Below are positions 2,394 to 64,000 of a stretch of DNA of 64,000 bases, piece after piece. Every line of letters starts with the position of its first letter. The stretch's first letter is position 1. Location of the stretch: positions 2,799 to 66,798 of the forward strand of contig JBDRMG010000064.1 of assembly GCA_043812495.1 (NCBI GenBank), in the 5' to 3' direction. Below the pieces are notes generated by a model. It saw only the letters and a list, made by a program, of their open reading frames with translations, ran no database searches and was not told the DNA's origin. The DNA is from Candidatus Omnitrophota bacterium. Lineage in GTDB: Bacteria > Omnitrophota > Gorgyraeia > Zapsychrales > JBDRMG01. The position numbers and the translations under genes are program-made.

Positions 2394-2426
2394 ACTAAAA
2401 ATAGTTATTAATGAAAAATCGTCTTT

Positions 2427-2567
2427 AAACGCAGATTCTCCTCCTCGCTTTTCGCTCGGAGTCCCGAGCAAAAAGCGAGGGACAGATTGCACGCAGATAT
2501 TCGCAAATTAGATCGTCAAAATAAATCTGCGAATATTTGCGTTTGATTTGCGTAAATCTGCGTTCAG
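2427..2567. repeat. Palindromic repeat built from CGCAGAT/ATCTGCG heptamers (family also at 55762-55848 and 57803-57847), with an embedded extra hairpin CCTCGCTTTTCGCTCGGAGTCCCGAGCAAAAAGCGAGG
   Basis: Read directly: aaacgcagat ... tgcacgcagat attcgcaaat ... atctgcgaat atttgcgttt gatttgcgtaa atctgcgttcag. Head-to-head heptamer arms. Intergenic, between the DUF5989 gene and the GT9 gene. Confidence 0.7.
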
Positions 2568-2585
2568 AATGGTTTTTCATCTTTA

Positions 2586-2744: not shown

Positions 2745-2758
2745 AATATCCTTTCTGC

Positions 2759-3157
2759 CTAAAATTGCTGGTGGTAGCGCTGTTGGTTGAAGTCTTCTTG
2801 TTTTCTTAAATGCCAATAGGATTCCTTCTGTGGTTCCAGTTTTTGATCGAGGGGATCTTTCTTGAGAATCCGCATGGCTAAACCCGCTATTCCAAAAAGA
2901 ACGAAGAAAACAACCGACAAAATGACGGATGTCACAACGGCGCCGATCACGTGAACAACCGCCATCCATTTTTGATATAAAGGAATAAGCGTCTCCCATT
3001 TCAAAATACTCATGCACAAAAGCATCAAGGCCACGACGCCGAGCGCAAGGGGAATCAATAAATCACCGTGTTTAACCCATAATCGATAACCCACAAAAGC
3101 CAGAATCAGGGACAGTCCATACCCAAAGACAAGAACTTGTTTTTTGATAATTTTCAT
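2759..3157 (-). CDS. SxtJ-like small membrane protein
   Basis: 132 aa with three to four predicted TM helices, immediately downstream (2-nt gap) of the carbamoyltransferase. Size and context match the SxtJ family. Confidence 0.6.
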   Translation of the reverse strand: MKIIKKQVLVFGYGLSLILAFVGYRLWVKHGDLLIPLALGVVALMLLCMSILKWETLIPLYQKWMAVVHVIGAVVTSVILSVVFFVLFGIAGLAMRILKKDPLDQKLEPQKESYWHLRKQEDFNQQRYHQQF

Positions 3158-3158
3158 T

Positions 3159-4985
3159 TCAATCCAGTTCTAAAGAAATTTTTTCTTTTTTGCATTGATG
3201 GTCAACGGATTGTTTTGTTTTATCCAAAACACAAGAACCCATCACGAGAAAATCCATATCGGTGCGCATAAAACAACGATAAGCATCTTGCGGAGTGCAG
3301 ACGATCGGCTCACCTCTTACATTAAACGACGTGTTAATAATCACCGGGCATCCGGTTAACTCATCAAAAGCCTGGATGATCTTATGAAATAGCGGATTGG
3401 TTTCTTGATTGACCGTCTGGATGCGCGCGGAATAATCGACATGTGTGACCGCCGGGATAACCGAGCGCTTCATTTTTAATTTATCAATGCCTTTGGCCTT
3501 ATCATCTTTTGATTCAGGTAATATCTTGTCCTCTTTGACCTGCGCAACCAAGAGCATGTAGGGGCTAGCGCAGCGGATATCAAAATAATCATAGGCCTTT
3601 TCTTCCGTAACCGACGGAGCAAAAGGCCGGAAAGATTCCCGGAATTTGATTTTTAAATTCATGACGGATTGCATTTTCTCGGAGCGCGCATCGCCGATAA
3701 TACTTCGCGCACCCAACGCCCGGGGACCAAATTCTACGCGCCCCTGAAAAAGACCAACCACTTTTTCTTCTTGGAGCAGCTGAGCTATTTTCTTTGCTAA
3801 ATCGATTTCATCAAACTTCTCAGCGACCGCCTGTGTATGGCGAATAAATTCTTCAATAGTTTTGTCGTCAAAGCTCGGCCCTAGACAAGAACCCTTTTGC
3901 TGATCATGAATACCATCGGCCTTTCTTTCGTGATTGAGATAACGGTACCAAATAAATAAGGCCGCTCCCAATGCGCCTCCCGCATCACCGGCCGCCGGCT
4001 GAATCCAGATATTTTCAAATGGACTTTCTTTTAAAATCCGGCCATTACCGACGCAGTTGAGGGTCACGCCTCCGGCTAAGCAAAGATTTTTCTTGCCTGT
4101 TGTTTTGTGAACATGATTCGCCATCTTAAGCATCACCTCTTCGGTGACATCCTGGATCGAACGCGCCACATCCATATAGATTTGCGTAATCGGCGATTCT
4201 GGTTTTCTTGGCGAGGCTCCAAAAAGATCATGAAATTTCTGATTGGTCATTGTCAAACCGGCGCAATAATTGAAATACTTCATATTCAGCTTAAACGAGC
4301 CATCCTCTCTGATGTCAATCAATTCGCGCCTGATGATGTCCGCATAGATGGGTTCTCCGTAAGGGGCTAAGCCCATTAGTTTGTATTCACCTGAATTCAC
4401 GCGAAACCCCGTGTAATATGTAAAGGCGGAATACAGCAAGCCCAGTGAATGAGGAAATTTGATTTCCGCCAATAGTTTGATTGTGTTATTCTCACCCACC
4501 CCATAGCTGGCCGTTGCCCATTCCCCCACGCCGTCCATCGTCAATACGGCCGCGTCTTGAAACGGCGATGGGAAAAAGGCGCTGGCCGCGTGCGCCTCGT
4601 GATGTTCTGTGAAAAGGATTTCCCCTTTGAAGTTCAATTCTGTCTGGATCAGATCCTTTAAGAAGATTTTCTGTTTCAGCCAAAGCGGAATCGCTTTTAA
4701 AAAAGACATCAACCCCAACGGCGCATACGTCAGATACGTCAGAAGAATGCGCTCAAATTTCAAGAAAGGCTTATCATAAAATGCCACGAAACTTAAATCA
4801 TCGGCACTAATACCTTCTTGGCCCAAGCAATAACGAAGCGCGTTCTCTGGAAACGAGAAATCATGTTTTTTACGGGTAAAACGTTCTTCTTGCGCAGCCG
4901 CCATGATTTTTCCGTCTTTAACTAAACACGCGGCGCTATCGTGATAAAAAGCGGAAATGCCTAGAATATAGATTGGTTTACTCAT
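3159..4985 (-). CDS. Carbamoyltransferase (NodU/CmcH family)
   Basis: 608 aa. The N-terminus MSKPIYILGISAFYHDSAACLVKDGKIMAAAQEERFTRKKHD is the classic Carbam_trans_N/YrdC-like start, and the C-terminal domain is conserved. Confidence 0.9.
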   Translation of the reverse strand: MSKPIYILGISAFYHDSAACLVKDGKIMAAAQEERFTRKKHDFSFPENALRYCLGQEGISADDLSFVAFYDKPFLKFERILLTYLTYAPLGLMSFLKAIPLWLKQKIFLKDLIQTELNFKGEILFTEHHEAHAASAFFPSPFQDAAVLTMDGVGEWATASYGVGENNTIKLLAEIKFPHSLGLLYSAFTYYTGFRVNSGEYKLMGLAPYGEPIYADIIRRELIDIREDGSFKLNMKYFNYCAGLTMTNQKFHDLFGASPRKPESPITQIYMDVARSIQDVTEEVMLKMANHVHKTTGKKNLCLAGGVTLNCVGNGRILKESPFENIWIQPAAGDAGGALGAALFIWYRYLNHERKADGIHDQQKGSCLGPSFDDKTIEEFIRHTQAVAEKFDEIDLAKKIAQLLQEEKVVGLFQGRVEFGPRALGARSIIGDARSEKMQSVMNLKIKFRESFRPFAPSVTEEKAYDYFDIRCASPYMLLVAQVKEDKILPESKDDKAKGIDKLKMKRSVIPAVTHVDYSARIQTVNQETNPLFHKIIQAFDELTGCPVIINTSFNVRGEPIVCTPQDAYRCFMRTDMDFLVMGSCVLDKTKQSVDHQCKKEKISLELD

Positions 4986-4986
4986 T

Positions 4987-5826
4987 TTATTTAATTCTTA
5001 TTTTAATTCTCTTCGGACTTTTATATCGCACGCGAAAAACTTTAAAAGGATGCCACCAGTATTTTCTTGAAATTTTAACCCAATCGTCTTGGCTTAATCC
5101 GTGTTCTTCTATTTTCTCGCGCATGACAGCTGGATGCGTCCCAAAATAAATCGGAAAGCGATCTAAATGGTCAAAAGAATTTTGTAACGATTTTTCCTTA
5201 TCGGAGAATCCGATGTCCTGTGCGTTTTCTCGTCTCATTTTCATGATTTCAGGATTTTGAACCCATCCATAATGATACAAGAACTTTCTTGTGTTGATGC
5301 GTTTCAGGGGCTGACCGTCTTTACGCTTAAAAGTATAAGCGTCCTCGCAGGATATAATCTCGCCGTTATTCTTGATAATCCTGTCCTGCTTTTGATACCA
5401 GCCAAGATCGATGCGGTAGCGATAATAGCTGCCGTAAAAATGCAGCCAGGCAAAGCGAAGTGCCTCGGCGTCCTGATTATGCAGATTCTCTTCCATGCAT
5501 TGACGCAGGAAAGGCAAATCCGCTTCATGAATCACTTCATCGCTCTGTAAATAAAAAGCCCAATCCCCCGAACATTCCTTCAAGGCCAAATTTGTCTGAT
5601 GCGAAAGAACCTCTTTGCCTTTCGATAAATCCCATTGATTCTGAACAATTTTAATTTTTTCGTCTTTCAAGGATCGGATAAGCTCTAGCGTGCTATCTTG
5701 GCTATCCCCTACATTCACAATAAACTCATCGCAAATCGGCAAAATCGATTGGATAGATTCCAAAACAGGATATCCAAATTTGACGGCATTTCGCGTAATC
5801 GTAAAGCCGCTAACTTTCATAAACAT
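4987..5826 (-). CDS. Putative glycosyltransferase (GT2-like fold)
   Basis: 279 aa. N-terminal SGFTITRNAVKFGYPVLESIQSILPICDEFIVNVGDSQDSTLE and a DXD-like LQSDEV. Tightly packed between the carbamoyltransferase and the GT4 gene. Confidence 0.5.
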   Translation of the reverse strand: MFMKVSGFTITRNAVKFGYPVLESIQSILPICDEFIVNVGDSQDSTLELIRSLKDEKIKIVQNQWDLSKGKEVLSHQTNLALKECSGDWAFYLQSDEVIHEADLPFLRQCMEENLHNQDAEALRFAWLHFYGSYYRYRIDLGWYQKQDRIIKNNGEIISCEDAYTFKRKDGQPLKRINTRKFLYHYGWVQNPEIMKMRRENAQDIGFSDKEKSLQNSFDHLDRFPIYFGTHPAVMREKIEEHGLSQDDWVKISRKYWWHPFKVFRVRYKSPKRIKIRIK

Positions 5827-8075: not shown

Positions 8076-9281
8076 TTAAACCCTCCCAAGAGGTTTTCTG
8101 AATTTTAACCGCAATAATGCAAAGACAAGCAGCAAGGCTGCGATGGTGACCGAAGACAGTTCTTCAAACAAATTCTCAAATTGATCTCCCACCACCGACT
8201 CCGCGGCCCAACTTGATAAAGCAAAAGCCAAAATCATCAAAACAAGCGTCAGTTTATCCTTGAAGTTCTCCTTCATCAGATAGCTCAATAAATAAATGTA
8301 AACGAATAAAAGGACAACAAAGTTTGTCATCCAGGCATTGGGATTAAAGATAGCCATGCCAATCATCAAAAGTCCGTAATCGATCAAGTTGGTGTCATTG
8401 CGGTTAGCCGCCGGCTGAAGCGTTAAAAGATAAATAAGCACGGCTAGAAAAATACCCGTTAACAAAGCTTCCTGAAATGTCAAGCGACCGACCGGTCTTC
8501 CGTAAGGCGAATCTGGTGATAGATACCTTAAAGCAAACGAATAGACAGACTGGTTTTTATAATCATACCAGCTAGATTGATCCAACGATGTTTTTGTAAT
8601 AAACGGCATCCATTTCTGAAGATAATTCACTTGGTTATCTACGCCAACATAAAGAGCAGGTAATGCCAAGAAAATGCATACAAAACATATCGTTAAAATA
8701 ATAATCCCGGTCCTGGCGCGTAAAAGTAAATACGGCAAAAAAATGGCCGGCATATATTTGAACATGACCGAAAGACCTAGAAAGGCCGACCCAAAGAAAG
8801 CTCTTTTATTTTCGAATAAATAAAGCGCCACCAATACCAAGAAAACCATGATGAGATTCACCTGCCCTGAATCCCACACAAGAAGTATGAAACGCGACGT
8901 GAAAAGAATGGAAAAGAAAAACATCGCGATTTTCTTTCTTAATGATAATTCTTCTATTCCGACTAGCTTAGCGGATACAAAACAAATTCCTATTAAAGAA
9001 AGGAAATTTAACGTAAAAAAGACCAAACTGGCCTGATGCTTGGGTAATAAACTTAAAGGGGAAATGAGCATCGCAAACATCGGTGAATATTTAAATGGCG
9101 TGATTTTCTTATCAGGACGACTATAGATATCCTTCTTTTCAAGAAATCGTTCACCGGTCGCGTAATAGACGCGAAAATCGGAATATTTTCTCTGCGGCGC
9201 GCGATTGGCATAGCGAACGAGATTGCCCGTAAAAACCGCGCAGATAACCAACAGAATGATGATTTTAAGACTCCGGCGCAT
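8076..9281 (-). CDS. Polytopic membrane glycosyltransferase, GT-C fold (ArnT/PMT-like)
   Basis: About 11 predicted TM helices, 401 aa from ATG 9281 (MRRSLKIIILLVICAVF). The 5' extension in the listed ORF overlaps the upstream GT2 gene. It is paired with an ArnC-like GT2 through a 17-nt overlap. Confidence 0.55.
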   Translation of the reverse strand: MRRSLKIIILLVICAVFTGNLVRYANRAPQRKYSDFRVYYATGERFLEKKDIYSRPDKKITPFKYSPMFAMLISPLSLLPKHQASLVFFTLNFLSLIGICFVSAKLVGIEELSLRKKIAMFFFSILFTSRFILLVWDSGQVNLIMVFLVLVALYLFENKRAFFGSAFLGLSVMFKYMPAIFLPYLLLRARTGIIILTICFVCIFLALPALYVGVDNQVNYLQKWMPFITKTSLDQSSWYDYKNQSVYSFALRYLSPDSPYGRPVGRLTFQEALLTGIFLAVLIYLLTLQPAANRNDTNLIDYGLLMIGMAIFNPNAWMTNFVVLLFVYIYLLSYLMKENFKDKLTLVLMILAFALSSWAAESVVGDQFENLFEELSSVTIAALLLVFALLRLKFRKPLGRV

Positions 9282-10733: not shown

Positions 10734-10897
10734 AAAGGAGTGTTGAAATTGCTTCGATTTGTGTTATGATATTTTTGCTTAATTTCTGAAACTGACTGAC
10801 TTTCTTGAAATTAAAGATCGTTTAAAGTATACAGGAAGCCGCTGCAATTTTGAAGCAAAAAATATTCTACTTCGCATAATCAATAATAAAGATAGTA

Positions 10898-10990
10898 TGT
10901 GCTTCGTAGAATATTTTCCTTTGAATAATTCTCCGAAGCCTATACCATTATGTTCAATTTATAAGGCGAAGGAGAATAAAAAGCCTTCTG
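10898..10990. mobile_element. MITE-like dispersed repeat, family A copy 1 (ends TTATTCTCCTTCGCC / GCTTCGTAGAATATT)
   Basis: About 90 nt, near-identical to the reverse complement of 33331-33420 and related to 51447-51645. It lies just upstream of the radical SAM gene start. Confidence 0.6.
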
Positions 10991-20466: not shown

Positions 20467-20603
20467 TTCTTGGGTCAATTTCTTTGAAGCAGAACGGGCA
20501 TGTAATTTCCAAAACAGTATAACTGAATTCTCCTTTAACTTCAACAATTATAAGGCGTTATCAAAGAAAGGTAAAATGACTTATGCCCAGTTTGAAATGA
20601 GCG

Positions 20604-20668
20604 AAAAAAGGGGCGCCTCGCCCGCCAAATCACTTGAGTGATTTGGCTGAGGCGGGCGCCCCTTTATC
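20604..20668 (-). terminator. Rho-independent terminator (24-bp GC-rich stem, U6 tail on the minus-strand transcript)
   Basis: GGGGCGCCTCGCCCGCCAAATCAC-TTGAG-GTGATTTGGCTGAGGCGGGCGCCCC, with the A6 run on the plus strand at 20605-20610. Confidence 0.75.
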
Positions 20669-20692
20669 GACGTTTTCTATATCAATGTTAAT

Positions 20693-20775
20693 AAGGAAGT
20701 CGATATTAGGTCTTTTTTCTCGTATAGAGAACGTATTAGCTACTTTACTATTGGTAAGGAAAAGACCAACAAAAT
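20693..20775. repeat. Hairpin repeat, family B (GGTCTTTTTTC ... GGAAAAGACC), second copy at 33748-33830
   Basis: About 80 nt, roughly 80 percent identical to 33748-33830. The stem is maintained in both copies. It lies in the 3' UTR of the 20792..21445 gene. Confidence 0.6.
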
Positions 20776-29759: not shown

Positions 29760-31406
29760 TTAATGACCGCTGCTAACGCAGGCGCCATGACAAGCCCCAT
29801 GGCAGGCTGAATGACACGCGGAATGACACGCCGAATGACAGGCTGAATGACAGGCATCATGGCACACATTTTGCATAAACGGACCTTCATAACATACCGA
29901 TGTGTTGCGAAACGTCGAGAAATTGTCCTTGAGGTTAGGGATGTTTCCTTCAACCGTTTTTCCGACATCCTGACTTTTCCTGTAATCATATCGATCGGCG
30001 TGGGTTCGCCCATAATAGTGATGATGGTATCCGCCCCAATAAAACGCGTCCTCATCGTTTTTCTTGTAAAGATCGCCCATCTGTTTTTTGTAATATTTCT
30101 TAGTTGCCTCGAGGTCGCAATCCCAAGTCTTCTGCTCAAGACCCGAAGCAATGGTTTTAAACAACAAATTGACTGGATTTTCTTGGATACGTCCGTCGGC
30201 TTCAATGGCACTATAAAGAATGCTCTCGTAAGAGTCATTGCTTCCCATAACGCCGGCAACGCGTTCAACGCGCAAAGGGTCCTCGCTTAGTATTTTAATA
30301 ATCCCCCGGCGTTCCATATTTTGAACAATCAATCCCATGAGAACCGAAAGAGGAATATCCAGAAGAAGGCCCGCTTCAATGGCGTTAAGAGTTTTGCAGA
30401 TTTTCCCTTTCTGCCGGAAGGATCCCACTTGAATCTTGGGAGGAACCCACTCATCCCCTTGCCACTGAATCTTGGAAATCCCGTCCTGGGCAATGAGCAT
30501 TGACTGATGCTTGCGCGTCATCACAAAAAGAGGGAAAAACCCCAAGAATAGTGCGCCAAAGAAAACAATGATAGCGATCGTGACATAATCAAACGGCATT
30601 TCGGCCAAAACACTGCCCGGAAAAAATCGGTTCAAAAGGTAGGATTCCTTCGCTTTTTTTAAATCGCTTTTTTGCCATGGCGCTTTTCCGGCAATGGTGG
30701 AAAGCAGAAAATAAGAAGCATCCGCATAGGTTTGGATCTGAAAATGATAGCGGCTATTAAGATTATTGCGATGGAATCTGACCGTCAGAATATTTTCTCC
30801 TTGAGCATTCTTCACGGAAGGATAATCAATCAGGTAGCGGTCATTGACATACTTTTCCGTCATGAATTTACTCTTTTCCAAATCTTCCTTGGAAACAGAT
30901 TCCGAAGAGAGGGAAATCGGATAATGAACCGTGACTGTTTCGTGCTCAAGGGAATTGTTCCATTGAACCGGCGCCCAGTTAAAAACCGCCAACCGCCCGT
31001 GAGGGCTGTCGGTCAGGGTCACCTGGCCGCTTTGCTGCAAATCCGTTTGATAGCGAAAGAAATAGGTCAGCTCACCGTCTTGAAAGGAGCGGCCTTGGGA
31101 GAGGATAATATCGTATTTCTTATTTGAGAGTTTCTTGATATCGAGAGCGTAGCGGTTACCGTTTTGGTCGAGGGCATAGGCATTCTGATCGTCAAAGCGC
31201 GGTCGCTCTACAAATCCTTCAAAATAAAAACCGTGAAGATTCGCATTCTGGCATACCCAGCGAACAGAATAGGAAATTTGCGCCTTGCCGTCTTTGTCCA
31301 AAACAACATCCGTTTCGACCCAGCGCAGTTTAAATCCATCGGCCCAAGCATGCGAAGGGAATACAAGGCAAAAAAACAATGCGAAGAAAACAAATATTCT
31401 TTTCAT
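29760..31406 (-). CDS. DUF2207-like membrane protein with C-terminal Cys/His repeat tail (ACHS)n
   Basis: Architecture, in order: signal peptide (MKRIFVFFALFFCLVFPSHAWA), an ectodomain of about 270 aa, a TM helix (VTIAIIVFFGALFLGFFPLFVMT), a cytoplasmic domain, and the tail NVCHDACHSACHSACHSACHSACHGACHGACVSSGH. Stop is 3 nt before the radical SAM start. Confidence 0.6.
   Translation of the reverse strand: MKRIFVFFALFFCLVFPSHAWADGFKLRWVETDVVLDKDGKAQISYSVRWVCQNANLHGFYFEGFVERPRFDDQNAYALDQNGNRYALDIKKLSNKKYDIILSQGRSFQDGELTYFFRYQTDLQQSGQVTLTDSPHGRLAVFNWAPVQWNNSLEHETVTVHYPISLSSESVSKEDLEKSKFMTEKYVNDRYLIDYPSVKNAQGENILTVRFHRNNLNSRYHFQIQTYADASYFLLSTIAGKAPWQKSDLKKAKESYLLNRFFPGSVLAEMPFDYVTIAIIVFFGALFLGFFPLFVMTRKHQSMLIAQDGISKIQWQGDEWVPPKIQVGSFRQKGKICKTLNAIEAGLLLDIPLSVLMGLIVQNMERRGIIKILSEDPLRVERVAGVMGSNDSYESILYSAIEADGRIQENPVNLLFKTIASGLEQKTWDCDLEATKKYYKKQMGDLYKKNDEDAFYWGGYHHHYYGRTHADRYDYRKSQDVGKTVEGNIPNLKDNFSTFRNTSVCYEGPFMQNVCHDACHSACHSACHSACHSACHGACHGACVSSGH
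29775..29860. repeat. In-frame 12-nt tandem repeat (GAATGACA[CG]G[CG]N), about 6 units, encoding the ACHS tail
   Basis: Seen directly: gccatgacaagcc ccatggcaggct gaatgacacgcg gaatgacacgcc gaatgacaggct gaatgacaggca. Confidence 0.8.
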
Positions 31407-33299: not shown

Positions 33300-33330
33300 T
33301 TGATCGTATATCCAAAGTTTCCGCTTTTAT

Positions 33331-33420
33331 TCTCCTTCGCCTTACCATTACAACATAATGGTACAGGCTTCGGAGAATTATTCTGAAGAGAATATTCTAC
33401 GAAGCATATACCGTTATTTA
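33331..33420. mobile_element. MITE-like repeat, family A copy 2 (reverse orientation relative to copy 1)
   Basis: Its reverse complement matches 10898-10990 over about 85 nt with few mismatches. Immediately upstream of the U32 gene. Confidence 0.6.
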
Positions 33421-33559
33421 CATTGCTTATGCGAAGTAGAATAAAATCTTTGAGCAATTCCCTGGCCGTCTCAAATTGCTCTTCATCCACCTTGATTCTG
33501 GCCGGCGCAACCAGGGGCCTCACCTGCAGGAAATTCTCTCCTTCGATAAAATAGCGAAT

Positions 33560-33830
33560 ATCATTCGCTTCAAAAAGCGATTTATTGGCCTTTTCCTTAA
33601 AAAAGACTTAGCGGTAGGCCAATTTTGACCTTTTTATTTAAGAAAAAAGGCCAAATATTGACTTCCACTAATGCTTTTATTGAGAAGAGGTCAATAATGA
33701 AGGCGATATCTCCGGGATTATTGGCTTTTTCTTTATTAAAGAAACGGTGGAAGCCAATATTAGGTCTTTTTCCTCATATAGAGAGAATATTAATGACTGT
33801 TCCATTAATAAGGAAAAGACCAATAAACGT
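33560..33830. repeat. Repeat-dense non-coding island: several degenerate copies and orientations of the family B motif, including the full hairpin copy at 33748-33830
   Basis: The motifs are ttattggccttttcctta, aaaaaaggccaaatattgacttcc, ggaagccaatattaggtctttttcctc and aaggaaaagaccaataaacg. No convincing ORF across 33300-33948. Confidence 0.55.
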
Positions 33831-54597: not shown

Positions 54598-55743
54598 TCA
54601 TTTAAAAACTTTTTTAATCTTTTCGGTCAAAGACTCGCTTTCGCTAATATCTTCGCCGCTTATTTGTGCATACTCTTCTAAAAGTTCCCGTTGTTTGGCC
54701 GACAAAGCCGTAGGAACCTGAATCATGACGCGGACGTATTGGTCACCGCCGGAACCACCGTGAAGACTTGGCATTCCTTTAGCCTTTAGGCGAAACATCT
54801 TATCGCTTTGCGTGCCGGCGGGAATTCTCATGGAGACATGGCCATTGAGCGTCGGAACTCGGACCTCAGCCCCCAAAGCCGCTTTGACAAAGCTCACGGG
54901 AAGTTCCATGTAGAGATCAACACCGTCGCGTTTAAAAGTTTTGTTCTCTTTAATATGAATATAGAGATAGAGGTCTCCTCGGCCGCCTTTGCCGACTTCT
55001 CCTTCGCCTCGGACTCTCAGTTGAGAATTATTATCCACGCCCGCGGGGAAATTAACCTCAATGTTGCGCGTCACGCGGAGGCGTCCCTGCCCCTGGCATT
55101 CAGTGCAAAACTGCGTAATGATCTGCCCTTCTCCCCGGCAATGAGGACAGGTTTGAGCCATTTGAAAAAATCCTGCTGATGTGACGATTTGTCCACGTCC
55201 GCCGCAGGATTGGCAGGTTTTCGTCTTTGTTCCGGGCTTAGCACCGCTTCCGCTGCAAGTCGAGCAATACTCATAGCGCGGAACTCTGATTTTCTTTTTA
55301 ACGCCAGAAAAAGCTTCTTCCAGGGTCAGGTCAACTTCATATTGAATATTGCGACCTTTTTGGCTTCGTCGGCCGCGTGAACGCGAAGAGCCGCCGCCAA
55401 AGGCGCTTCCAAAGAGATCTTCAAAAATTCCTCCGCCAAAACCAGAATCAGATAAACCCTCAAAAATACTGTTGAAATCAGCCCCGCGAAAGATATCCTC
55501 TGTTGTATAGCGCTGGTCAATGCCCGCATGACCGTATTGGTCATACATGGCGCGTTTTTGCGAATCAGACAAAACGCCATAAGCTTCGGAAATTTCCTTA
55601 AATTTTTCTTCCGCCTCTTTTTTCTTTTCGGCAGGAACGCGATCCGGATGATGAGATAAAGCCTGAGACCGGTACGCCTTCTTGATTTCTTCTAAGGTGG
55701 CGCTTTTCTGAACACCCAGGATTTCGTAGTAATCGCGTTTCAT
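54598..55743 (-). CDS. dnaJ: Chaperone DnaJ
   Basis: J-domain (DYYEILGV ... HPDR), Gly-rich linker, and four CxxCxGxG zinc-finger repeats. Confidence 0.95.
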
Positions 55744-55761
55744 TGTTTTAATTAAGATTTA

Positions 55762-55848
55762 AACGCAGATCTTCGCAGATTGCACGCAGATGATCGCAGA
55801 TTAACATCTGCGAGAATCTGCGTTTGATCTGCGTTAATCTGCGTTCAA
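55762..55848. repeat. Palindromic array of four CGCAGAT heptamers, then four ATCTGCG heptamers (dnaK-dnaJ intergenic)
   Basis: aaacgcagat cttcgcagat tgcacgcagat gatcgcagat taac atctgcgag aatctgcgtt tgatctgcgtt aatctgcgttca. Confidence 0.75.
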
Positions 55849-55855
55849 ATGCCTT

Positions 55856-57782
55856 TTAGCTCTTCTCATTCTCCGCCTTAAAATCCGCGTCAATGACGTC
55901 GTCTTTTCCTTTGTCTTTTGGCTGTTCTTGCGAAGAGGTCCCGCTTGGGCCCTCCTGGTCGCCTGTTTGCTGTTGAGATTGCTGACCGGCCTGTTGCTGC
56001 TGTGCGGAGGCCTTATAAATTTCTTCCGCCAATTTATGACTAGCCTTGGTCAAAGATTCCGACGTTGATTTTATCTTTTGGACGTCTTTGGATTTAATCG
56101 CCTCTTTCAAAGCGTTTAATTCCACTTCAATCGCTCCCCTGTCCTGGTTGGAAACCTTGTCGCCGTATTCTTTCAAGGATTTTTCCGTTGCATAGGCAAG
56201 GGCATTGGCCTGATTGACGACCTCAACCTCTTCTTTTTTCTTTTTGTCTTCTTCGGCGTATTGTTCGGCCTGCTTGACCATCTTCTGAATTTCTTCTTCG
56301 GACAGCTTTTTGGGCGCGGTAATTTTAATCGACTGCTCTTTACCTGTTCCCTTATCCTTGGCGGACACATGAACGATACCATCCGCGTCGATATCAAAGC
56401 CGACTTCGATTTGCGGAATCCCGCGCTGAGCAGGAGGCAGTCCCACTAAATCAAAACGACCGAGCTCGATGTTGTCATTGGCCATTTGTCTCTCGCCCTG
56501 AAGAACGCGAATCGTAACCGCCGGTTGATTATCCTCGGCGGTTGAAAAGATCTGGCTCTTTTTGGTGGGAATCGTCGTATTTCGTTCAATCAATTTCGTA
56601 AAGACTCCCCCAAGCGTTTCGATTCCTAAAGAAAGCGGCGTAACATCCAAAAGCAAGACTTCCTTAGCGTCTCCTTTGATGATCGACGCCTGAATCGCCG
56701 CGCCTAAAGCCACGCATTCCATAGGATCGATGCCGCGCTCAATTTTCTGGCCGATTTCCTTTTCCACAAAGGCCTGAACAATGGGCATGCGCGTCGGACC
56801 GCCGACAAGGATAATCCGATCAATCTTGATATCGCTACCGAGCTTGGCTGAGGCATCTTTGATGGCTTGCTTAATGGGACCGCGGCAGCGGTCGACGATC
56901 GATGCGATTAAACTTTCCAGCTTGGCTCGATCAATGTTCATGGTCAAATGCTTTGGACCGGAGGCATCAGCTGTGATAAAAGGCAGATTGATGTCCGTCG
57001 ATACGGTACTTGAAAGTTCAATCTTTGCTTTCTCGGCTCCTTCTCTTAATCGTTGAAAGGCCATTTTATCTTTGGAAAGATCGATGCCGTTTTCTTTCTT
57101 AAATTCATTCACAATGTGATCGATGAGCACATTATCCATGTCGGTGCCGCCTAGCTGCGTATCGCCGTTGGTGGATAAAACTTCGAATGTCGCGGCCTTA
57201 TGCGAGTCATCCCATCCCATTTCAAGGACGGTCACATCAAGGGTTCCGCCGCCAAAGTCAAAAACCATGATCTTTTGCTCTTTACCGGCTTTGTCCAAGC
57301 CATAGGCCAGGCAGGCTGCTGTGGGTTCATTGATAATGCGCAAAACCTTTAAGCCCGCGATCTCCCCTGCATCTTTCGTGGCCTGCCGTTGATTGTCATT
57401 GTAATACGCGGGGACCGTGACAACGGCTTCTTCGACTTTGTCGCCTAAGAATTTCTCGGCATCCGCTTTGATCTTTTGTAAAATAAACGCGCTGATTTGC
57501 TGCGGCGTAAATTCCTTGCCGCCGGCCTTGAATTTAAAATCGGTCCCCATTTTGCGTTTGGCGGCATAAATCGTATTTTTCCGAATTGATCGCCGCCTGG
57601 CGCCTGGCGGGTTCACCGACAAGACGCTGACCGTCTTTGGTAAAGGCCACAAAGGACGGAAATGCTTTACCGCTTGCGACACCCGCGCCTTCGGCGGATG
57701 GGATAATCGTCGGGCGACCGCCTTCCATGATAGCGGCCGCTGAATTGGAAGTTCCTAAATCAATACCGATGACTCGTGCCAT
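55856..57782 (-). CDS. dnaK: Chaperone DnaK, reading frame broken by a 1-nt indel in an A5 run (plus-strand TTTTT at 57576-57580)
   Basis: The N-terminus [22 protein letters not shown] ... AINSE is in ORF 57534..57782. The rest ([11 protein letters not shown] ... through the C-terminal EEVD-like end) is in ORF 55856..57682. Removing one A restores AINSENTIY, the canonical DnaK sequence. Confidence 0.9.
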
Positions 57783-57802
57783 AATTTTACCCTCCCTTGC
57801 AA

Positions 57803-57847
57803 CCGCAGATATCGCAGATCTTAGATAGATCCGCAGATATCGCAGAT
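57803..57847. repeat. Direct CGCAGAT heptamer repeats immediately upstream of dnaK
   Basis: ccgcagatatcgcagat cttagatagat ccgcagatatcgcagat. Confidence 0.65.
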
Positions 57848-57850
57848 GTT

Positions 57851-58237
57851 CTAGTAATTATTTACCATTCTCTTTATTTTTAATCTATTCTCTGCAAAAT
57901 TTAAAATTAAGCCAACTTTCTTACCCGTTGTTTTCAGATATGATAGCATCTGAGCGTAATGAATATTGCCTAACTCTGAAACACTCTTTAGCTCAATTAT
58001 TACTTCATCTTCAACTAAAAAATCTACTCGCTGGTAACCTAATTCTACTGTTTTATAATTAACCTTGATTTCTGCTTGTTCCTCAAATCTAATCTTATTT
58101 TTCTGAAATTCATAGGCCATTGCTTTCTCATAAATTTTTTCAACAAAACCTGGGCCTAAATTATTGTGTATCTCAATGCCTATTCCAATTATTTTCTCGG
58201 TTAATTTATCAAGTTCATTTCTGTTCATCTGCGTCAT
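57851..58237 (-). CDS. GxxExxY-family protein
   Basis: 128 aa. [14 protein letters not shown] and [27 protein letters not shown] are the GxxExxY/PD-(D/E)xK-like signature. Inserted between grpE and dnaK; its 5' end overlaps grpE by 14-23 nt. Confidence 0.7.
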
Positions 58238-58964
58238 CGGCGTTTACTTTATCTGCGTCATCGGCGTTTACTTTATCTGCGTCATCGGCGTTTACTTTAT
58301 CTGCGTCATCTGCGGTTGCATTATCTGCGTCATCGGCGTTTACTTTATCTGCGTCATCTGCGGTTGCATTATCTGCGTCATCTGCGGTTGCATTATCTGC
58401 GTCATCGGCGTTTACTTTATCTGCGTCATCTGCGGTTGCAAGCTTTGTGGTTGCCACTTTCACTTTACTCGTGCGCACCACGCGATCACCCAACAGATAC
58501 CCCTTCTGAAATTCTTCCACAATCGTACCCTCGGGGTGCTGGTCTGTCCCCTCTTGCATCAAGGCTTCGTGCAAATGCGGATCAAATGGTTTGCCTTTGG
58601 CCTCGATGGGCTTCACATTATTTTTCTTAAGCATGTCATAGACATGCGCCATGACCATTTCGATTCCTTTGAGGAAAGCCGTATAGTCCTGATGATTGGC
58701 CTTGGCCGCCTCGACGGATCTTTCTAAATCGTCAAGGATGTTCAAAAATTCAGTGACGAGTCCTTCATTGGCGTATTTGATGAATTCGAACTTTTCGCGC
58801 TCCATGCGCTTGCGCGCGTTTTCGAATTCGGCGTAAAGACGGATAAATTTGTCTTTATACTCACCGGCCTCTTGTTTAAGCTCTTCGAGTTCCGATTCCT
58901 TGACGGAAACCATCTTCTCTTTTTGCGGCTTGGTTTCTTTATCGTGTTGATTCTCTTTTGTCAT
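58215..58964 (-). CDS. grpE: Nucleotide exchange factor GrpE with C-terminal ADDAD(K/N)(V/A)(N/T) octapeptide repeats
   Basis: Conserved GrpE core (FENARKRMEREKFEFIKYANEGL ... GKPFDPHLHEAL ... GYLLGDRVVRTSKVKV), followed by about 70 aa of repeats. Confidence 0.85.
   Translation of the reverse strand: MTKENQHDKETKPQKEKMVSVKESELEELKQEAGEYKDKFIRLYAEFENARKRMEREKFEFIKYANEGLVTEFLNILDDLERSVEAAKANHQDYTAFLKGIEMVMAHVYDMLKKNNVKPIEAKGKPFDPHLHEALMQEGTDQHPEGTIVEEFQKGYLLGDRVVRTSKVKVATTKLATADDADKVNADDADNATADDADNATADDADKVNADDADNATADDADKVNADDADKVNADDADKVNADDADEQK
58226..58445. repeat. Tandem 24-nt repeat, about 9 units (CTGCGTCATCGGCGTTTACTTTAT / CTGCGTCATCTGCGGTTGCATTAT), encoding the GrpE tail
   Basis: Read directly; two unit variants alternate. 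Confidence 0.85.
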
Positions 58965-58979
58965 TTGGATATTTCCCGA

Positions 58980-59717
58980 TTAAAACTGACTCATCAGTTC
59001 CGACAAATATTCAAGGGCCGACACAACCCGCTCATAATCCATGCGCGTCGGCCCGAGAAGCGCAATACGTCCTGTTTCTCCTGATTTTCGTTGATATTTG
59101 GATACCGCCAGAGAACAGCTTCCCATGTCCTCGCACGCAATTTCGTTTCCGATAAAAAATTCAATTCGCTTCTCGAGATTCCGGTTAATGATATCCAAGA
59201 GGTGTTCTTTTTGTTCAATTAAGCGAAGAATTCCTTGAATTTTCTGAAAATCGTGAAATTCCGGAAAGCCAGCAACAAAATTCATACCGCTGCAATAGAG
59301 ATGCTCGGAATCCCCATCTAAAGAAACAAGACTTGTATATTGCGTCAACTCAGAAATGGCCTGAGATGTAATTTCAAGCAATCGTTCTAATTCTTTCACA
59401 TGAGCCAGATATTCCTGTTCGATGCGCTTTTTCTCCTTTCCAAGAAGCTGGATCTCATTCATGAGGTGATCAACAAAATAACGATAACCTTTTTGTGTCG
59501 GAATCCGGCCAGCCGATGTGTGGGGATGCGTTAAGTAGCCATCTTCTTCGAGTTCAGCTAAGATATTGCGGATTGTGGCCGGACTTAAGTCATAAAAATG
59601 CCGTTTCACAATAAAACCCGAGCTGACCGGTGTGACGTTTTTTGCATATTCATCCACAACGATCGAAAGAATCTTGTCTTTTCTGGCTTGATAATCAGTT
59701 TTTCTTGGCGTCATCAT
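58980..59717 (-). CDS. hrcA: Heat-inducible transcription repressor HrcA (short form)
   Basis: N-terminal winged helix ILSIVVDEYAKNVTPVSSGFIVKRHFYDLSPATIRNILAELEEDGYLTHPHTSAGRIPTQKGYRYFVD. Confidence 0.8.
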   Translation of the reverse strand: MMTPRKTDYQARKDKILSIVVDEYAKNVTPVSSGFIVKRHFYDLSPATIRNILAELEEDGYLTHPHTSAGRIPTQKGYRYFVDHLMNEIQLLGKEKKRIEQEYLAHVKELERLLEITSQAISELTQYTSLVSLDGDSEHLYCSGMNFVAGFPEFHDFQKIQGILRLIEQKEHLLDIINRNLEKRIEFFIGNEIACEDMGSCSLAVSKYQRKSGETGRIALLGPTRMDYERVVSALEYLSELMSQF

Positions 59718-59765
59718 CTTAATTTTAATTATTAATATTAATACCTATCAAATGCTTTCTAAAAA

Positions 59766-59792
59766 TTAGCACTCTAGCAACAAGAATGCTAA
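59766..59792. promoter_or_regulatory. CIRCE operator (TTAGCACTC-N9-GAATGCTAA) upstream of hrcA
   Basis: One mismatch to the consensus TTAGCACTC-N9-GAGTGCTAA. It lies 49 nt upstream of the hrcA ATG. Confidence 0.75.
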
Positions 59793-59907
59793 GGGGGTAT
59801 TTTAGCAAATAATGATTTGATGTCAACAAATTTTGGATAAGGCACCTCATCGATCATTCCCCCCGCCCGCCATTGAACCAATGGCGGGCGGGGCGCATCT
59901 TTACTTC

Positions 59908-60357
59908 CTAATTAATGTCTATCTTGATTTGCTTTGGTTTTTCCTTCTCGATCTTAGGCAGAACGATCTCAAGAACCCCATTTTTGTACGACGCCTTGAC
60001 TTTGTCTTTGTCTATTCCAACGCCGAGCTGTAAACTTCGTTCAAAAACACCGTAGGATCGCTCCACGCGATGATAGCTCCTTTCCTTCTTTTCCGTTTCG
60101 ATTTTTCGCTCTCCTCTGACAGTAAGGATGTCGTCATCTATATTGAGCTCAATTTCATTCTCCTTTAAGCCAGGCAAATCAGCCTTCACGATGACATTGT
60201 CTTTATCCTCATCGACATCAACAGCAGGAAAACCGCGAAAGGGGCTCAGGTTTTTGTCTAAACCGGGAAACAGAGTTAGTTCAAAAGCACGATTTTCCAA
60301 GTCCGACAGTTCGCGAAACGGATCGTAGTTCTTTTGATTCCATTTGATTAATGCCAT
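59908..60357 (-). CDS. Small heat-shock protein (Hsp20/alpha-crystallin)
   Basis: FPAVDVDEDKDNVIVKADLPGLKENEIELNIDDDILTVRGER alpha-crystallin domain. 149 aa. Confidence 0.9.
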   Translation of the reverse strand: MALIKWNQKNYDPFRELSDLENRAFELTLFPGLDKNLSPFRGFPAVDVDEDKDNVIVKADLPGLKENEIELNIDDDILTVRGERKIETEKKERSYHRVERSYGVFERSLQLGVGIDKDKVKASYKNGVLEIVLPKIEKEKPKQIKIDIN

Positions 60358-60401: not shown

Positions 60402-60428
60402 CTGGCACTCACGCTTAAAGAGTGCTAA
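60402..60428. promoter_or_regulatory. CIRCE-like operator (CTGGCACTC-N9-GAGTGCTAA) upstream of hsp20
   Basis: The right half-site is perfect, the left has two mismatches, and the 9-nt spacer is exact. Confidence 0.65.
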
Positions 60429-61155: not shown

Positions 61156-63069
61156 CTACTTCATCATTAAATCAGCTGATTTATTAACCGGCCCAACGGC
61201 CTTAGGAAATTCTCGCCTCAATTCAGGATAAGCGCTAAGAAATTCCTCAAGATTGTCATAATCACCCTTGGGATTTAAATCGTCCCCTGACCTATTTAAT
61301 TTTGTATTCTTTTCGCACACCATCGGCGCCGGTCCACCGGTAAAGATATAAGCAATGAGATAAACAACGTCATCTAAATCAATACTACCACTACACTCGA
61401 CATCACCTATTTTATAAGGTAGTGGCTGGGGTCCTCCGACAAAGATATAGGCAATAAGATAAACAACATCATCTAAATCAATGTTTTCCATTCTATTAGC
61501 ATCACCCAATATATAGGAAAATTTGTCTTTTAACACATTATAACCCTGTCTAGTTGTTGATGTGTCTGTTGATACAAGCCCCCACCATTCTTCATTCATA
61601 TTGGGATCCAGATAGCCTGGGTTATACCAATCTACCACGGTATCATGACTCGATGGAGTCCCGTGACTACTTTTGTACCATCCGTCCTTCCAGGAAAAAG
61701 CTATTCCTCCGATACCTACTTTTGAATTACCTAAATTAGCGATATTACTCCAAATCTCGGGCCACAGCGATTCCAAATATTCAGCCTGAATGGTTTGATC
61801 TTCATGACCGAACCGGCCATCATAGGCATCACAGCCGAATTCGCTGATTAATAATGGTTTATTTGTCAAAGCCGCGAAATCATCAAATACACTTCCGAAT
61901 GACTCGCCTCGATAAAACTGCATAGACCATACATCTAAATAAGATAATGAGGCATCGTCAGCATTTTTTAAAGGGTCCCCGATATCCCAATCTGCCTGAT
62001 CCGCATTTGCGGTTGTCACAGGATGATAATTGGCGCCTTCCTCTAAATGCGCTGCCTGAGCGCACTCATTCACAAGGCTATACCAATCGCTTGGATTAAC
62101 GCCCGCTCCTTCAAGCTCCCGATTGACTTCATTGCCCAAGCTCCACATTAAAATGGCAGGATGATTTTTCCAGTGCCTAACCATTTCCCGAAAGCGTGCC
62201 TTAATGTTTTCGCGGACAACTGGATTTCCAAAATCAACTGCCTGTCCGCTATATTTTGCCACAACCGGAAATCCCATAACGACATATATATCATTTTGGT
62301 ATAAACTATCTAATGCGGCTTTTTGGGATGGACGTATAGAATAAGTACGAATCGTATTAACACCCATTTCTTTCATTAAAGAGATATCGTTAATGTAATC
62401 ATCCTGAGACAATGACCAGTCATAACTTGAACCGTACTCTCCTATCGGAGTAAATTCAGCATTAACGCCCTGGATGGCAAAAACCTTTCCGTCAACAAAA
62501 AGTTTCCTTCCGTTAACGGAAACTGCGGTTGGGTTTCCGTTAATAGGAACTTCCCAGCGGACATGATCAACAAAAAAGACTTGGCTGCTTTCTACTGTTA
62601 TCTTGAAAGGACAATAGGTATGGCTTAAATCTGCGCTGAAATCACTAAGCGGTATAACGATCTCTTGCCATTGGTTTACAAGATCCCATCCGTAATCGGA
62701 TATGTACTTTGTGCGATTAACACCCTGAGGAGCCTCGATTTCCACTTTAAGATCAACAGGCGTTTTAACAAAAAACTTTAAATGACCCCCGTTGTAACGA
62801 GACAAATCTAAAGTATAATTTTGGTCATCATTGAAGAATATTCCCCAACCAGCCCAATTATTGCTGACAGTCGCAAAATACGAAACTCCTTCCGGTGTTT
62901 CCTGGCTAAATCTTTGCTCAGAAAATCCTCCTCCGCCGTCCCAAGTCCACAGTTTCCATACATTGGGTGTACCGCCATCGCGGTAAACATATAAAATATC
63001 TGCCCAAGATAAACTTGCGACGTTTAGTCCGATAAATAGAAAAACCAGTATAATTAATATTTTTCTCAC
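61156..63069 (-). CDS. Secreted glycoside hydrolase (TIM-barrel, GH2/GH5-like) with two C-terminal dockerin-type repeats
   Basis: Signal peptide. ILMWSLGNEVNRE is the acid/base motif region of clan GH-A. C-terminal IDLDDVVYLIAYIFVGGPQP and IDLDDVVYLIAYIFTGGPAP repeats. Confidence 0.65.
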   Translation of the reverse strand: MRKILIILVFLFIGLNVASLSWADILYVYRDGGTPNVWKLWTWDGGGGFSEQRFSQETPEGVSYFATVSNNWAGWGIFFNDDQNYTLDLSRYNGGHLKFFVKTPVDLKVEIEAPQGVNRTKYISDYGWDLVNQWQEIVIPLSDFSADLSHTYCPFKITVESSQVFFVDHVRWEVPINGNPTAVSVNGRKLFVDGKVFAIQGVNAEFTPIGEYGSSYDWSLSQDDYINDISLMKEMGVNTIRTYSIRPSQKAALDSLYQNDIYVVMGFPVVAKYSGQAVDFGNPVVRENIKARFREMVRHWKNHPAILMWSLGNEVNRELEGAGVNPSDWYSLVNECAQAAHLEEGANYHPVTTANADQADWDIGDPLKNADDASLSYLDVWSMQFYRGESFGSVFDDFAALTNKPLLISEFGCDAYDGRFGHEDQTIQAEYLESLWPEIWSNIANLGNSKVGIGGIAFSWKDGWYKSSHGTPSSHDTVVDWYNPGYLDPNMNEEWWGLVSTDTSTTRQGYNVLKDKFSYILGDANRMENIDLDDVVYLIAYIFVGGPQPLPYKIGDVECSGSIDLDDVVYLIAYIFTGGPAPMVCEKNTKLNRSGDDLNPKGDYDNLEEFLSAYPELRREFPKAVGPVNKSADLMMK

Positions 63070-63241: not shown

Positions 63242-64000
63242 TTATCTCATTATCTTGCTTGATTGCATGCCTATGGTCTTTGGCTGATAGACGTAGTCCC
63301 GTACCATCGGATATTCATTTAAGAATTCGTCTAAAGTCATCCCACCTGTCGGATCTCCTGATTTATTCATCGCTGAACCGCTATCACCGCACACTGGTCC
63401 CTGTCCGGAGGAAAAGATATAATTGACCAAATACATGACATCATCGATATCGACAGATCCGTTGCCATCAACATCGCCCACCTCTAGCGGAACAGGAGCA
63501 GGCCCACCAGTAAATATATAATCAATTAAATAAACAGCGTCATCAATATCGACAAAACCATCTCCATTAGCGTCACCGCAGATATTCGTAATGTTAATAA
63601 CGTCGCTAATATCATTAGCTCCGAATCTATCTCTTGCTTCACAGACAAGAGAATATTGGGTCAACGGTATGTGAATGTAGTTATCCGAAGAAAAATCCGT
63701 GTCCCAGATCGCATCATTATTGAAATCGCATCTATATTCCAGCAAGCCATCCCATGTTGTGTCACTATCTAAATCACTCACGTCCATAGATATGATTAAG
63801 CCGGAACTTTTCTCGAGGATGTACATATTGTAATCCACAAGATACGCATAGCCATCTTGGACGGATACATCACGGGAGAAACCTGGGGCCCAATAGGAAT
63901 CGACAAAATTGGGCGCAGAAGGATTACTGATGTCAAGAATTTGGAGGCCTCCCATATAGTCCGCTATATAGGCGTACTGCCCCGAAACTTTGACCCCATA
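63242..64000 (-). CDS. LVIVD-repeat beta-propeller protein with two dockerin-type repeats; 5' end lies beyond the window
   Basis: GQYAYIADYMGGLQILDISNPSAP is an LVIVD repeat. GDANGDGFVDIDDAVYLIDYIFTGGPAP and GDVDGNGSVDIDDVMYLVNYIFSSGQGP are dockerin-like. The ORF remains open to position 64000. Confidence 0.65.
   Translation of the reverse strand, partial: YGVKVSGQYAYIADYMGGLQILDISNPSAPNFVDSYWAPGFSRDVSVQDGYAYLVDYNMYILEKSSGLIISMDVSDLDSDTTWDGLLEYRCDFNNDAIWDTDFSSDNYIHIPLTQYSLVCEARDRFGANDISDVINITNICGDANGDGFVDIDDAVYLIDYIFTGGPAPVPLEVGDVDGNGSVDIDDVMYLVNYIFSSGQGPVCGDSGSAMNKSGDPTGGMTLDEFLNEYPMVRDYVYQPKTIGMQSSKIMR

Follow-up and report, generated by a model that had tools for sequence, protein, structure and literature searches.

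Among the described families of bacterial repeats, the closest to the sequences considered here are the repetitive extragenic palindromic (REP) and REPIN elements with their RAYT transposases, reportedly set out by Nunvar and co-workers in 2010 and by Bertels and Rainey in 2011. In that system short palindromes are dispersed in intergenic DNA near gene ends, the hairpins greatly outnumber the form that carries a gene, the gene is flanked by inverted repeats, no target duplication is made, and a stem-loop inside an operon may affect the mRNA. The same traits recur around the dnaK operon of a Candidatus Omnitrophota bacterium, in a stretch of 64,000 nucleotides (contig JBDRMG010000064.1 of assembly GCA_043812495.1, positions 2,799 to 66,798; the window hereafter) in which the heptamer CGCAGAT and its complement ATCTGCG form conspicuous arrays. 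These arrays are probably the ends and the gene-less hairpins of a family of selfish, insertion-type nuclease-gene cassettes, one of which has inserted in the operon.

The likeness to REPIN and RAYT is incomplete. Here the gene encodes a PD-(D/E)XK (Cas4/RecB-like) nuclease of ~125 residues, whereas a RAYT is a HUH/Y1 transposase of the IS200/IS605 kind; the arms consist of two to four spaced heptamers, whereas a REP is a single unit with a 5' GTAG head; and the heptamer family crosses phyla and domains, with its gene in multiple copies and in operons, whereas REPs are species-specific. When the arrays were examined for RAYT-like features, the flanked gene proved to be PDDEXK_3, no transposase-like neighbour recurred, and no GTAG was found in the units (CRCRRAK) or the ends (TTAWC). 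With miniature inverted-repeat transposable elements (MITEs) and foldback elements the arrays share terminal inverted repeats, a small non-coding form produced by internal deletion (as at locus L046, below), nesting and insertion close to genes, but they differ from MITEs in having no target-site duplication of at least 3 bp and no DDE transposase. Arms of iterated heptamers resemble instead those of eukaryotic foldback elements and, to our knowledge, have not been described for bacterial MITEs. Rickettsia palindromic elements, which Ogata and co-workers are said to have reported in 2000, are likewise translated in frame within host proteins, as are 78 residues of GrpE here; they are single units of ~100–150 bp with neither heptamer arrays nor a nuclease gene, whereas the coding capture described below would be a C-terminal extension produced by insertion at the end of a gene and array amplification. 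The attC sites of integrons belong to small cassettes that hold a single gene, lack a promoter and lie in sense orientation in a transcription unit; the sites are imperfect palindromes of 7-bp boxes with short unpaired spacers and ends like ...AAC and GTT... They differ in that each arm has R and L boxes inverted relative to each other, with the open reading frame (ORF) next to the palindrome, whereas the present palindromes have direct boxes in each arm and enclose the ORF. There is moreover no intI here and no cassette array, the cargo is always one protein family, and no integrase was found among the neighbours of the arrays and cassettes examined. The TAACTGA repeats of Beggiatoaceae, Cyanobacteria and Bacteroidetes are also intergenic, lie near start codons, are patchily distributed across phyla and spread by an unknown mechanism; they are contiguous (7-nt period), are inverted in 1 of 170 sets and have no reported associated gene (PMC4679880). 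The present arrays differ in being spaced by 8–11 nt, commonly inverted in pairs and linked to a nuclease gene.

Both strands of the window together hold 42 copies of CGCAGAT, against 8.5 ± 3 expected, a five-fold enrichment that none of 100 shuffled sequences reached, and the entire excess is confined to four clusters. A preliminary description of this DNA, made from the letters alone, had recorded four direct CGCAGAT copies followed by four inverted ATCTGCG copies in the dnaK-dnaJ spacer, a direct-repeat array upstream of dnaK and a third copy at 2427–2567. All three were found as recorded; the upstream array comprises four CGCAGAT copies (57804–57847), and the third copy is a homologue of the spacer palindrome over the whole element. 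Overlooked at that stage were the biggest array (58227–58434), in which a 24-bp unit is repeated 8.7 times and 13 heptamers are exact, a minus-strand ORF of 128 codons that the arrays bracket between grpE and dnaK, and a 24-nt inverted repeat that pairs 57796–57819 with 58419–58442 (92% complementary). The bracketed gene and its two arrays have the form that we propose for a full cassette: ~450–650 bp, with a small GxxExxY (PDDEXK_3, Cas4/RecB-like) gene between inverted arrays of spaced heptamers and with outer ends that read ...TTAWC immediately before the heptamer, in the window TTGCAAC before CGCAGAT. The right end of the cassette passes directly into the dnaK Shine-Dalgarno sequence GGGAGGG and its ATG, which lies 21 nt from the array. 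The spacer palindrome and its homologue at 2.4 kb would be MITE- or REPIN-like gene-less members of the family, that is, two back-to-back arrays with a minimal loop. The coordinates are collected in Table 1.

The protein encoded between the arrays matches TIGR04256 with E = 2e-41 (140.9 bits; curated cut-off 35) and PF13366 (PDDEXK_3) with E = 3e-39 (134.4 bits; cut-off 22). Its D72...E82-x-K84 motif (D...E-x-K) is invariant in 17 homologous sequences. A protein identical to it is annotated in a Candidatus Omnitrophota metagenome-assembled genome, and no solved structure matched it by sequence. The AlphaFold (AF2) model has a pLDDT of 94.5, and the best compact match returned by Foldseek is Cas4 SSO0001 (TM 0.58), with lambda exonuclease and RecE matching as well. 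The modelled protein can be assigned with confidence to the PD-(D/E)XK fold (alpha-beta-beta-beta-alpha-beta) with an intact catalytic motif, and nuclease activity is predicted. A 2012 survey of the PD-(D/E)XK superfamily graded this family as of unknown function and recorded multiple transfers between bacteria and archaea (PMC3424549). In the searchable literature, outside which most subscription journals fall, we found no account of heptamer arrays around GxxExxY or PDDEXK_3 genes, and the cassette family appears to be undescribed.

To relate gene and arrays we used 80 metagenomic loci picked solely because they encode a GxxExxY relative, 59 of which have complete flanks. Heptamer arrays lie beside the gene in 32 of the 59, and in 19 they form inverted upstream and downstream pairs. 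Up to 250 bp from the GxxExxY gene, arrays of the family type number 1.21 per kb, and in the remainder of the loci 0.06 per kb, a difference of ~20-fold. The heptamers form a family with the consensus ~C-R-C-R-R-A-K (CRCRRAK), represented by CACAGAG, CACGAAG, CACGGAG, CGCGGAG, CGCAGAG, CACAGAT, CACGGAT, CGCGGAT, CGCAGAT and CATGAAG, and are spaced by 8–13 nt (9–11 in the window). The loops between inverted arrays are bimodal in length, being either 1–193 bp, without a gene, or 371–445 bp, which corresponds to one GxxExxY gene; the arrays typically lie 0–30 bp from the start and 0–60 bp from the stop of the ORF. Proteins that share a heptamer type are 54.4% identical, compared with 48.6% otherwise, a difference reached in 1 of 2000 permutations, and in 5 of 8 loci a distant array is of the same type as the local cassette. 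Simple adjacency as the connection between gene and array was ruled out, the link showing only when the protein was the starting point; near CGCAGAT arrays, tblastn detected a GxxExxY gene in 0 of 120 loci and a profile search one degraded fragment.

These data suggest that the nuclease recognises and binds the iterated heptamers as an oligomer. We infer this because the heptamers are identical within and between arms while the spacers vary, because the spacers of the window hairpin are symmetric in length and not complementary in sequence, and because more similar proteins tend to have the same type of heptamer. Once bound, the nuclease would promote movement of the unit, or its copying, with no duplication of the target, and would serve gene-less hairpins in trans. 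The process may be transposition-like or may amount to homing into cognate hairpins, two models that overlap.

Comparison of the cassettes revealed common boundaries in unrelated surroundings. The five closest relatives of the window gene (71–80% identity) have the same ends as in the window, TTGCAAC-CGCAGAT... and ...ATCTGCG-GTTGCAA, and their cassettes sit after nusA, between cheA and cheC, and beside response-regulator genes. In all four relatives with a downstream flank, the right end is followed, as at dnaK, by GGGAGG-N6-9-ATG of the next host gene; this arrangement was rejected as a general rule, since it is valid for the CGCAGAT/TTGCAAC subfamily and applies to just 10 of 46 cassettes overall. 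Loci L142 and L171 are 82% identical only from the TTTAC that precedes the first array to the GTAAA that follows the second, and their flanks are unrelated. Across 100 elements the inverted symmetry reaches ~3 nt past the heptamers, with the outward consensus T-T-A-W-C. The TTGCAA at the ends of the window cassette was considered as a 6-bp duplication and ruled out, as it is part of the conserved terminal repeat.

Loss of the gene from a cassette was also captured. In L046 the loop between two CGCAGAT and three ATCTGCG copies encodes GxxExxY residues ~5–37 and then runs straight into the right array; it is a deletion intermediate. Nesting is seen in L020, where CACAGAG (four copies), CACGAAG (three) and CGCAGAT (three) are followed, beyond the core, by ATCTGCG (two), CTTCGTG (three) and CTCTGTG (four). 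In both L020 (6030–6665) and L062 (2180–2735), three types of heptamer array are concentric around a ~375-bp non-coding core, as if elements had inserted repeatedly into the centres of earlier ones, and neither ~375-bp loop contains a credible ORF. In 24 of 39 cassettes (23 of 149 shifted controls) the 60 nt upstream of the left end contain the stop of a same-strand ORF, and in 28 of 39 (75 of 162 shifted controls) a same-strand ORF has its start no more than 45 nt from the right end, and thus the cassettes sit in sense orientation between co-directional genes. A separate observation concerns L147 (1709–2157) and L178 (1646–2120), which have similar host flanks on both sides and carry CACAGAT and CGCGGAT, respectively, all six heptamers differing in concert; this could reflect concerted evolution of the arms or independent insertions at a hot spot.

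The distribution of the arrays themselves was assessed by scanning one genome per GTDB species for three CGCAGAT copies at 9–12-bp spacing, which gave at least 120 matches. The matches listed span more than 12 bacterial phyla and archaea; the bacterial hosts among them include Verrucomicrobiota, Planctomycetota, Chloroflexota, Cyanobacteria, Acidobacteriota, Nitrospirota, Bacteroidota, Proteobacteria and Omnitrophota, besides others, and the archaeal hosts Methanoperedens, Methanosarcinales and Thermoplasmatota. The base preceding the first heptamer, which the search pattern does not impose, is C in 114 of 140 arrays, position −3 is a purine in 127 of 140, and the spacers are A-rich (GAA, TA, AAA) despite a median GC content of 60% at the host loci. 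An inverted partner within 300 bp lies downstream of 34 of the 140 arrays and upstream of only 3. Although called genes cover 83% of these loci, 23 of 140 arrays fall inside genes, and the outer edge of the array is 10–30 bp from a gene boundary at 42 gene starts and 53 gene ends. These two counts reveal none of the orientation bias towards flanking genes that a promoter or 5' untranslated region would lead one to expect, and clustering of the ORFs within 1.2 kb of the arrays returned just generic families, such as ABC ATPases, as recurrent neighbours. On viral contigs the real heptamer occurs as arrays in at least 120 stretches and the reversed heptamer in 33 in all; an inverted partner accompanies 41 of 149 real arrays and 0 of 34 control arrays, and the controls have no bias at position −1.

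The scan thus places REP-like arrays beside unrelated genes, largely the pattern that the preliminary description had named as contrary to its suggested link with stress genes and operon regulation, and that link is not supported. The random scatter that it had envisaged as the alternative is correct in so far as the arrays have no tie to stress genes and incorrect in so far as they hug gene boundaries. Two side observations arose from the scan. At an orthologous intergenic site with conserved flanks in Nodularia and Dolichospermum (L016, 3560–3720; L040, minus strand, ~120–280), the CGCAGAT array has four copies in L016 and three in L040, and array copy number therefore shifts by whole units. 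Among loci L001–L120, for example in L020, L062 and L026, arrays create long spurious ORFs with repeat peptides (ICVICG, HEDTKA, ADDAD), which in high-GC metagenome-assembled genomes (MAGs) are likely annotated as hypothetical proteins.

Table 1 Coordinates of the arrays, the putative cassette and the associated genes in the window.
Feature	Position	Strand	Remarks
Gene-less palindromic heptamer-array element, dnaK-dnaJ spacer	55758..55849	.	TTTAAA-(CGCAGAT x4, spacers 3/4/3)-TAAC-(ATCTGCG x4, spacers 3/4/3)-TTCAAA
Second gene-less palindromic copy	2424..2568	.	~35 nt upstream of unrelated minus-strand gene
Putative cassette, 3'-side terminal inverted repeat	57796..57847	-	gene strand: (ATCTGCG-AT-ATCTGCGG) twice, terminus GTTGCAAG
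GxxExxY / PDDEXK_3 predicted nuclease gene, cassette cargo	57851..58237	-	128 aa; database version 125 aa, start 58228
Putative cassette, 5'-side terminal array	58224..58442	-	gene strand opens CTTGCAAC-CGCAGAT-GA-CGCAGAT; 24-bp unit x 8.7, 13 exact heptamers
grpE	58215..58964	-	249 aa; last ~78 residues encoded by cassette terminal array
dnaK	55856..57782	-	1-nt frameshift in A-run (plus-strand T-run about 57576-57580); stop 55856-55858
dnaJ	54598..55743	-	start codon 14 nt downstream of hairpin element, 20 nt from last heptamer
CIRCE operator upstream of hrcA	59766..59792	.	1 mismatch
Second CIRCE operator, upstream of HSP20 gene	60402-60428		

The dnaK operon of a syntenic Omnitrophota relative (L201; GrpE 72% identical) shows what the locus looks like without the arrays. 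Its gene order matches that of the window (MerR-HSP20-...-HrcA-GrpE-DnaK-DnaJ-Zn-ribbon-VanZ-DUF1015-AccD), its grpE-dnaK gap is 2 bp and its dnaK-dnaJ spacer 62 bp, and neither in these spacers nor anywhere in 12 kb do L201 and a second syntenic relative, L203, have arrays. One further difference is that L201 has clpB between its HSP20 gene and hrcA (2553–5156) and the window has none at that place (59717–59908). With 2 bp between grpE and dnaK in L201, the ribosome-binding site of dnaK there falls inside the coding end of grpE, and a cassette inserted within or at the end of grpE would thus have its left array translated as a GrpE tail. We propose that a CGCAGAT-type cassette entered the junction of grpE and dnaK in sense orientation, immediately before the Shine-Dalgarno sequence of dnaK, and that this took out the grpE stop codon, such that grpE would now read through the left (upstream) array to a stop at 58215, the array having later been amplified as a 24-bp unit. 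In the window, residue 171 is the last of the GrpE domain, and translation of the array in the grpE frame adds a C-terminal tail of 78 residues, acidic in character; such a repeat tail occurs in 0 of 119 GrpE relatives, which are 160–241 aa long. Hairpins of the CGCAGAT type from another subfamily (10/11 spacing, TTTRAAC ends) would have entered the spacer between dnaK and dnaJ and the site at 2.4 kb. Downstream of the cassette, dnaK itself is split by a 1-nt shift in an A5 run into two overlapping ORFs (55856–57682 and 57534–57782); at 57563–57584 the window reads ...INSEKYDL..., differing from the relative, and the frameshift points either to an error of assembly or to a genuine pseudogene. 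A 7-bp tandem CGCCTGG was ruled out as its cause, the encoded PARRQAA being conserved and the shift sitting in the A-run.

In the gene-less spacer element the direct copies occupy 55764–55801 (spacing 10/11/10) and the inverted copies 55806–55843, separated by a 4-nt loop. The 2.4-kb element shares with it the heptamers, the spacers and the flanks TTTAAAC...GTTCA, and has a longer loop of 16 nt and a nested insertion of 41 nt; the gene downstream of it is an unrelated, glycosyltransferase-like one. Its second heptamer harbours, at 2443–2480, a 38-nt near-perfect hairpin (CCTCGCTTTTCGCTCGG-AGTC-CCGAGCAAAAAGCGAGG) that has no further copy within the window; it could represent another mobile repeat, of very small size. 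The 4+4 hairpin also occurs in a further Omnitrophota MAG, L112, at least twice in 6 kb, and there the spacers keep their lengths (3/4/3) and not their sequences. Helical phasing at 10–11 bp was rejected as a general rule, as it is true of the Omnitrophota 4+4 hairpins and other types are spaced by 8–9 bp.

The preliminary description had proposed that the intergenic hairpin could set the DnaK:DnaJ ratio, as an attenuator or as a site of processing, a reading that in its full form makes the hairpin a selected regulatory element and the upstream array a heat-shock operator. The RNA structure that it predicted was borne out by folding: on the minus (transcribed) strand the spacer forms one long interrupted stem of −59 kcal/mol, compared with −22.6 kcal/mol for shuffled sequences (z = −11.3). 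It also accords with regulation that 13 nt separate the array from the Shine-Dalgarno sequence of dnaK and that dnaJ, which has no obvious Shine-Dalgarno sequence of its own, starts just past the hairpin. Moreover, L203 carries in its own dnaK-dnaJ spacer an unrelated perfect hairpin (8645–8705; stem of ~22 bp), and so a hairpin there may be tolerated or useful; hairpins may recur independently at this position. Against a dedicated role in the dnaK operon stand the absence of the arrays from the syntenic relatives, the homologous element at the unrelated 2.4-kb gene, and the arrays beside unrelated genes in many phyla with no preference for neighbour or orientation. Nor is the stem followed by the U-tract of an intrinsic terminator, its tail being UUUAAAUCUUAAUU, partly paired within the stem; no terminator-like site was called on the minus strand between 55744 and 55858, and Rfam 15 gave no match at the arrays, whether at gathering thresholds in the window or at E ≤ 1 in 55600–58600. 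Heat-shock control has a separate basis, as the only matches to the pattern of the controlling inverted repeat of chaperone expression (CIRCE), TTAGCACTC-N9-GAGTGCTAA, are the two operators upstream of hrcA and the HSP20 gene, with none at the heptamer arrays. The repeats are indeed not CIRCE, as the preliminary description stated; heat-shock control is exerted via CIRCE and HrcA, and the repeats are insertions. Its further idea of iterated binding sites is plausible for the element's own nuclease and not for a heat-shock regulator. We consider a dedicated dnaK regulator distinctly unlikely. REP stem-loops in operons provide a precedent for mRNA stabilisation, and by analogy the spacer hairpin could, as a by-product of insertion, stabilise the 3' segment of dnaK mRNA or serve as an RNase III site; at −59 kcal/mol it may affect dnaK and dnaJ expression incidentally.

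The relation between gene and hairpin could also be the reverse of the one that we favour, the hairpins being an independent REP-like family that depends on another enzyme or consists of host structural sites, and the GxxExxY genes being homing-type invaders of hairpin centres. Such invasion would explain why the gene lies exactly in the loop and agrees with the concentric nesting in L020 and L062, which shows that hairpin centres are preferred for insertion, with the lack of target-site duplication, and with the great excess of hairpins over genes (1 weak GxxExxY fragment in 837 kb of array loci); PD-(D/E)XK homing endonucleases exist, and I-Bth0305I is among the weak fold matches. Yet DNA similarity between unrelated contigs spans the arrays and the gene as one unit, the ends are conserved along with the closest protein relatives, L046 shows loss and not gain of the gene, and heptamer type tracks protein similarity. 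Homing into cognate hairpins would still be compatible with all four points, and we regard this order of events as unlikely. By contrast, it is very improbable that the arrays are plain slippage products, mini- or microsatellites that happen to contain CGCAGAT and are unrelated to the nuclease gene. The grpE array was clearly expanded by duplication of its 24-bp unit, copy number differs at the orthologous cyanobacterial loci, and cross-phylum heptamer repeats of unknown origin are on record in TAACTGA (PMC4679880); but slippage leaves unexplained the specific boundary base, the downstream polarity of inverted partners and the lack of both features in the reversed-heptamer control, as well as the 20-fold enrichment of arrays beside GxxExxY genes, the bimodal loops and the ends common to elements in unrelated contexts.

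Several observations weigh against nuclease-gene cassettes as the source of the arrays. No GxxExxY gene lies within 8 kb at 119 of the 120 listed CGCAGAT-array loci, which means that the nuclease must act in trans or that arrays spread by another route, and recognisable arrays are missing at about half of the GxxExxY genes. The covariation between protein and heptamer is modest and confounded with host phylogeny. The gene-less hairpins of the window and its resident cassette are unlike in spacing (10/11 versus 9) and in their ends (TTTRAAC versus TTGCAAC), and the hairpins are hence not simple deletion products of that cassette. In the 100 elements no target-site duplication of 3 bp or more exceeded the shuffled expectation at any offset, so that the mechanism is unlike that of classical MITEs, and no excision point restored a clean ORF end at the presumed earlier junction of the grpE stop and the dnaK ribosome-binding site. 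Mobility itself is deduced from comparative data only.

Other repeats and RNA features of the window stand apart from the heptamer family. A minus-strand match to the Rfam cspA thermoregulator (RF01766; 22129–22487) scores 78.8 bits against a gathering score of 78, and this enterobacterial family is unexpected in Omnitrophota. A 12-bp tandem repeat (ATGACAGGCTGA, about 5 copies) at 29787–29855 is unrelated to the heptamers. Longer repeats comprise a 119-nt inverted repeat (10863–10981 and 33325–33443; 84% complementary, arms 22 kb apart), a 110-nt direct repeat (20664–20773 and 33718–33827; 75%) and a palindrome at 20602–20669 (33-nt arms, 2-nt gap, 73% complementary, G+C-rich core) that could be a terminator working in both directions or one more repeat element. 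At 61331–61482 and 63402–63553, a 53-nt unit occurs four times, as two pairs with 99-nt spacing, probably reflecting a repeated protein domain in paralogous genes.

For the dnaK operon, these findings remove a tempting regulatory story. For the very large, uncharacterised GxxExxY/PDDEXK_3 family they provide the first genomic context found, as the cargo of compact array-ended cassettes. A wider proposal, for which we would put the chances at slightly below even, is that selfish cassettes of a hitherto unrecognised class, present in bacteria, archaea and viral contigs, have GxxExxY proteins as their nucleases. A promoter-less gene would settle in sense orientation in operon spacers, its product would recognise type-specific heptamers, and the unit would spawn plentiful hairpins, as a PD-(D/E)XK counterpart of REPIN and RAYT, make no target duplication, nest in its own kind and now and then remodel host proteins and mRNAs. 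The elements between co-directional genes, which abut the next ribosome-binding site, constitute a natural experiment in the tolerance of operons to insertion. If the nuclease recognises its arrays, a new class of enzyme would be the driver of REP-like repeats, a frequent cause of spurious ORFs and of repeat-encoded tails on proteins in MAGs would be accounted for, and small nucleases whose 7-bp specificities vary naturally would become available as a set.

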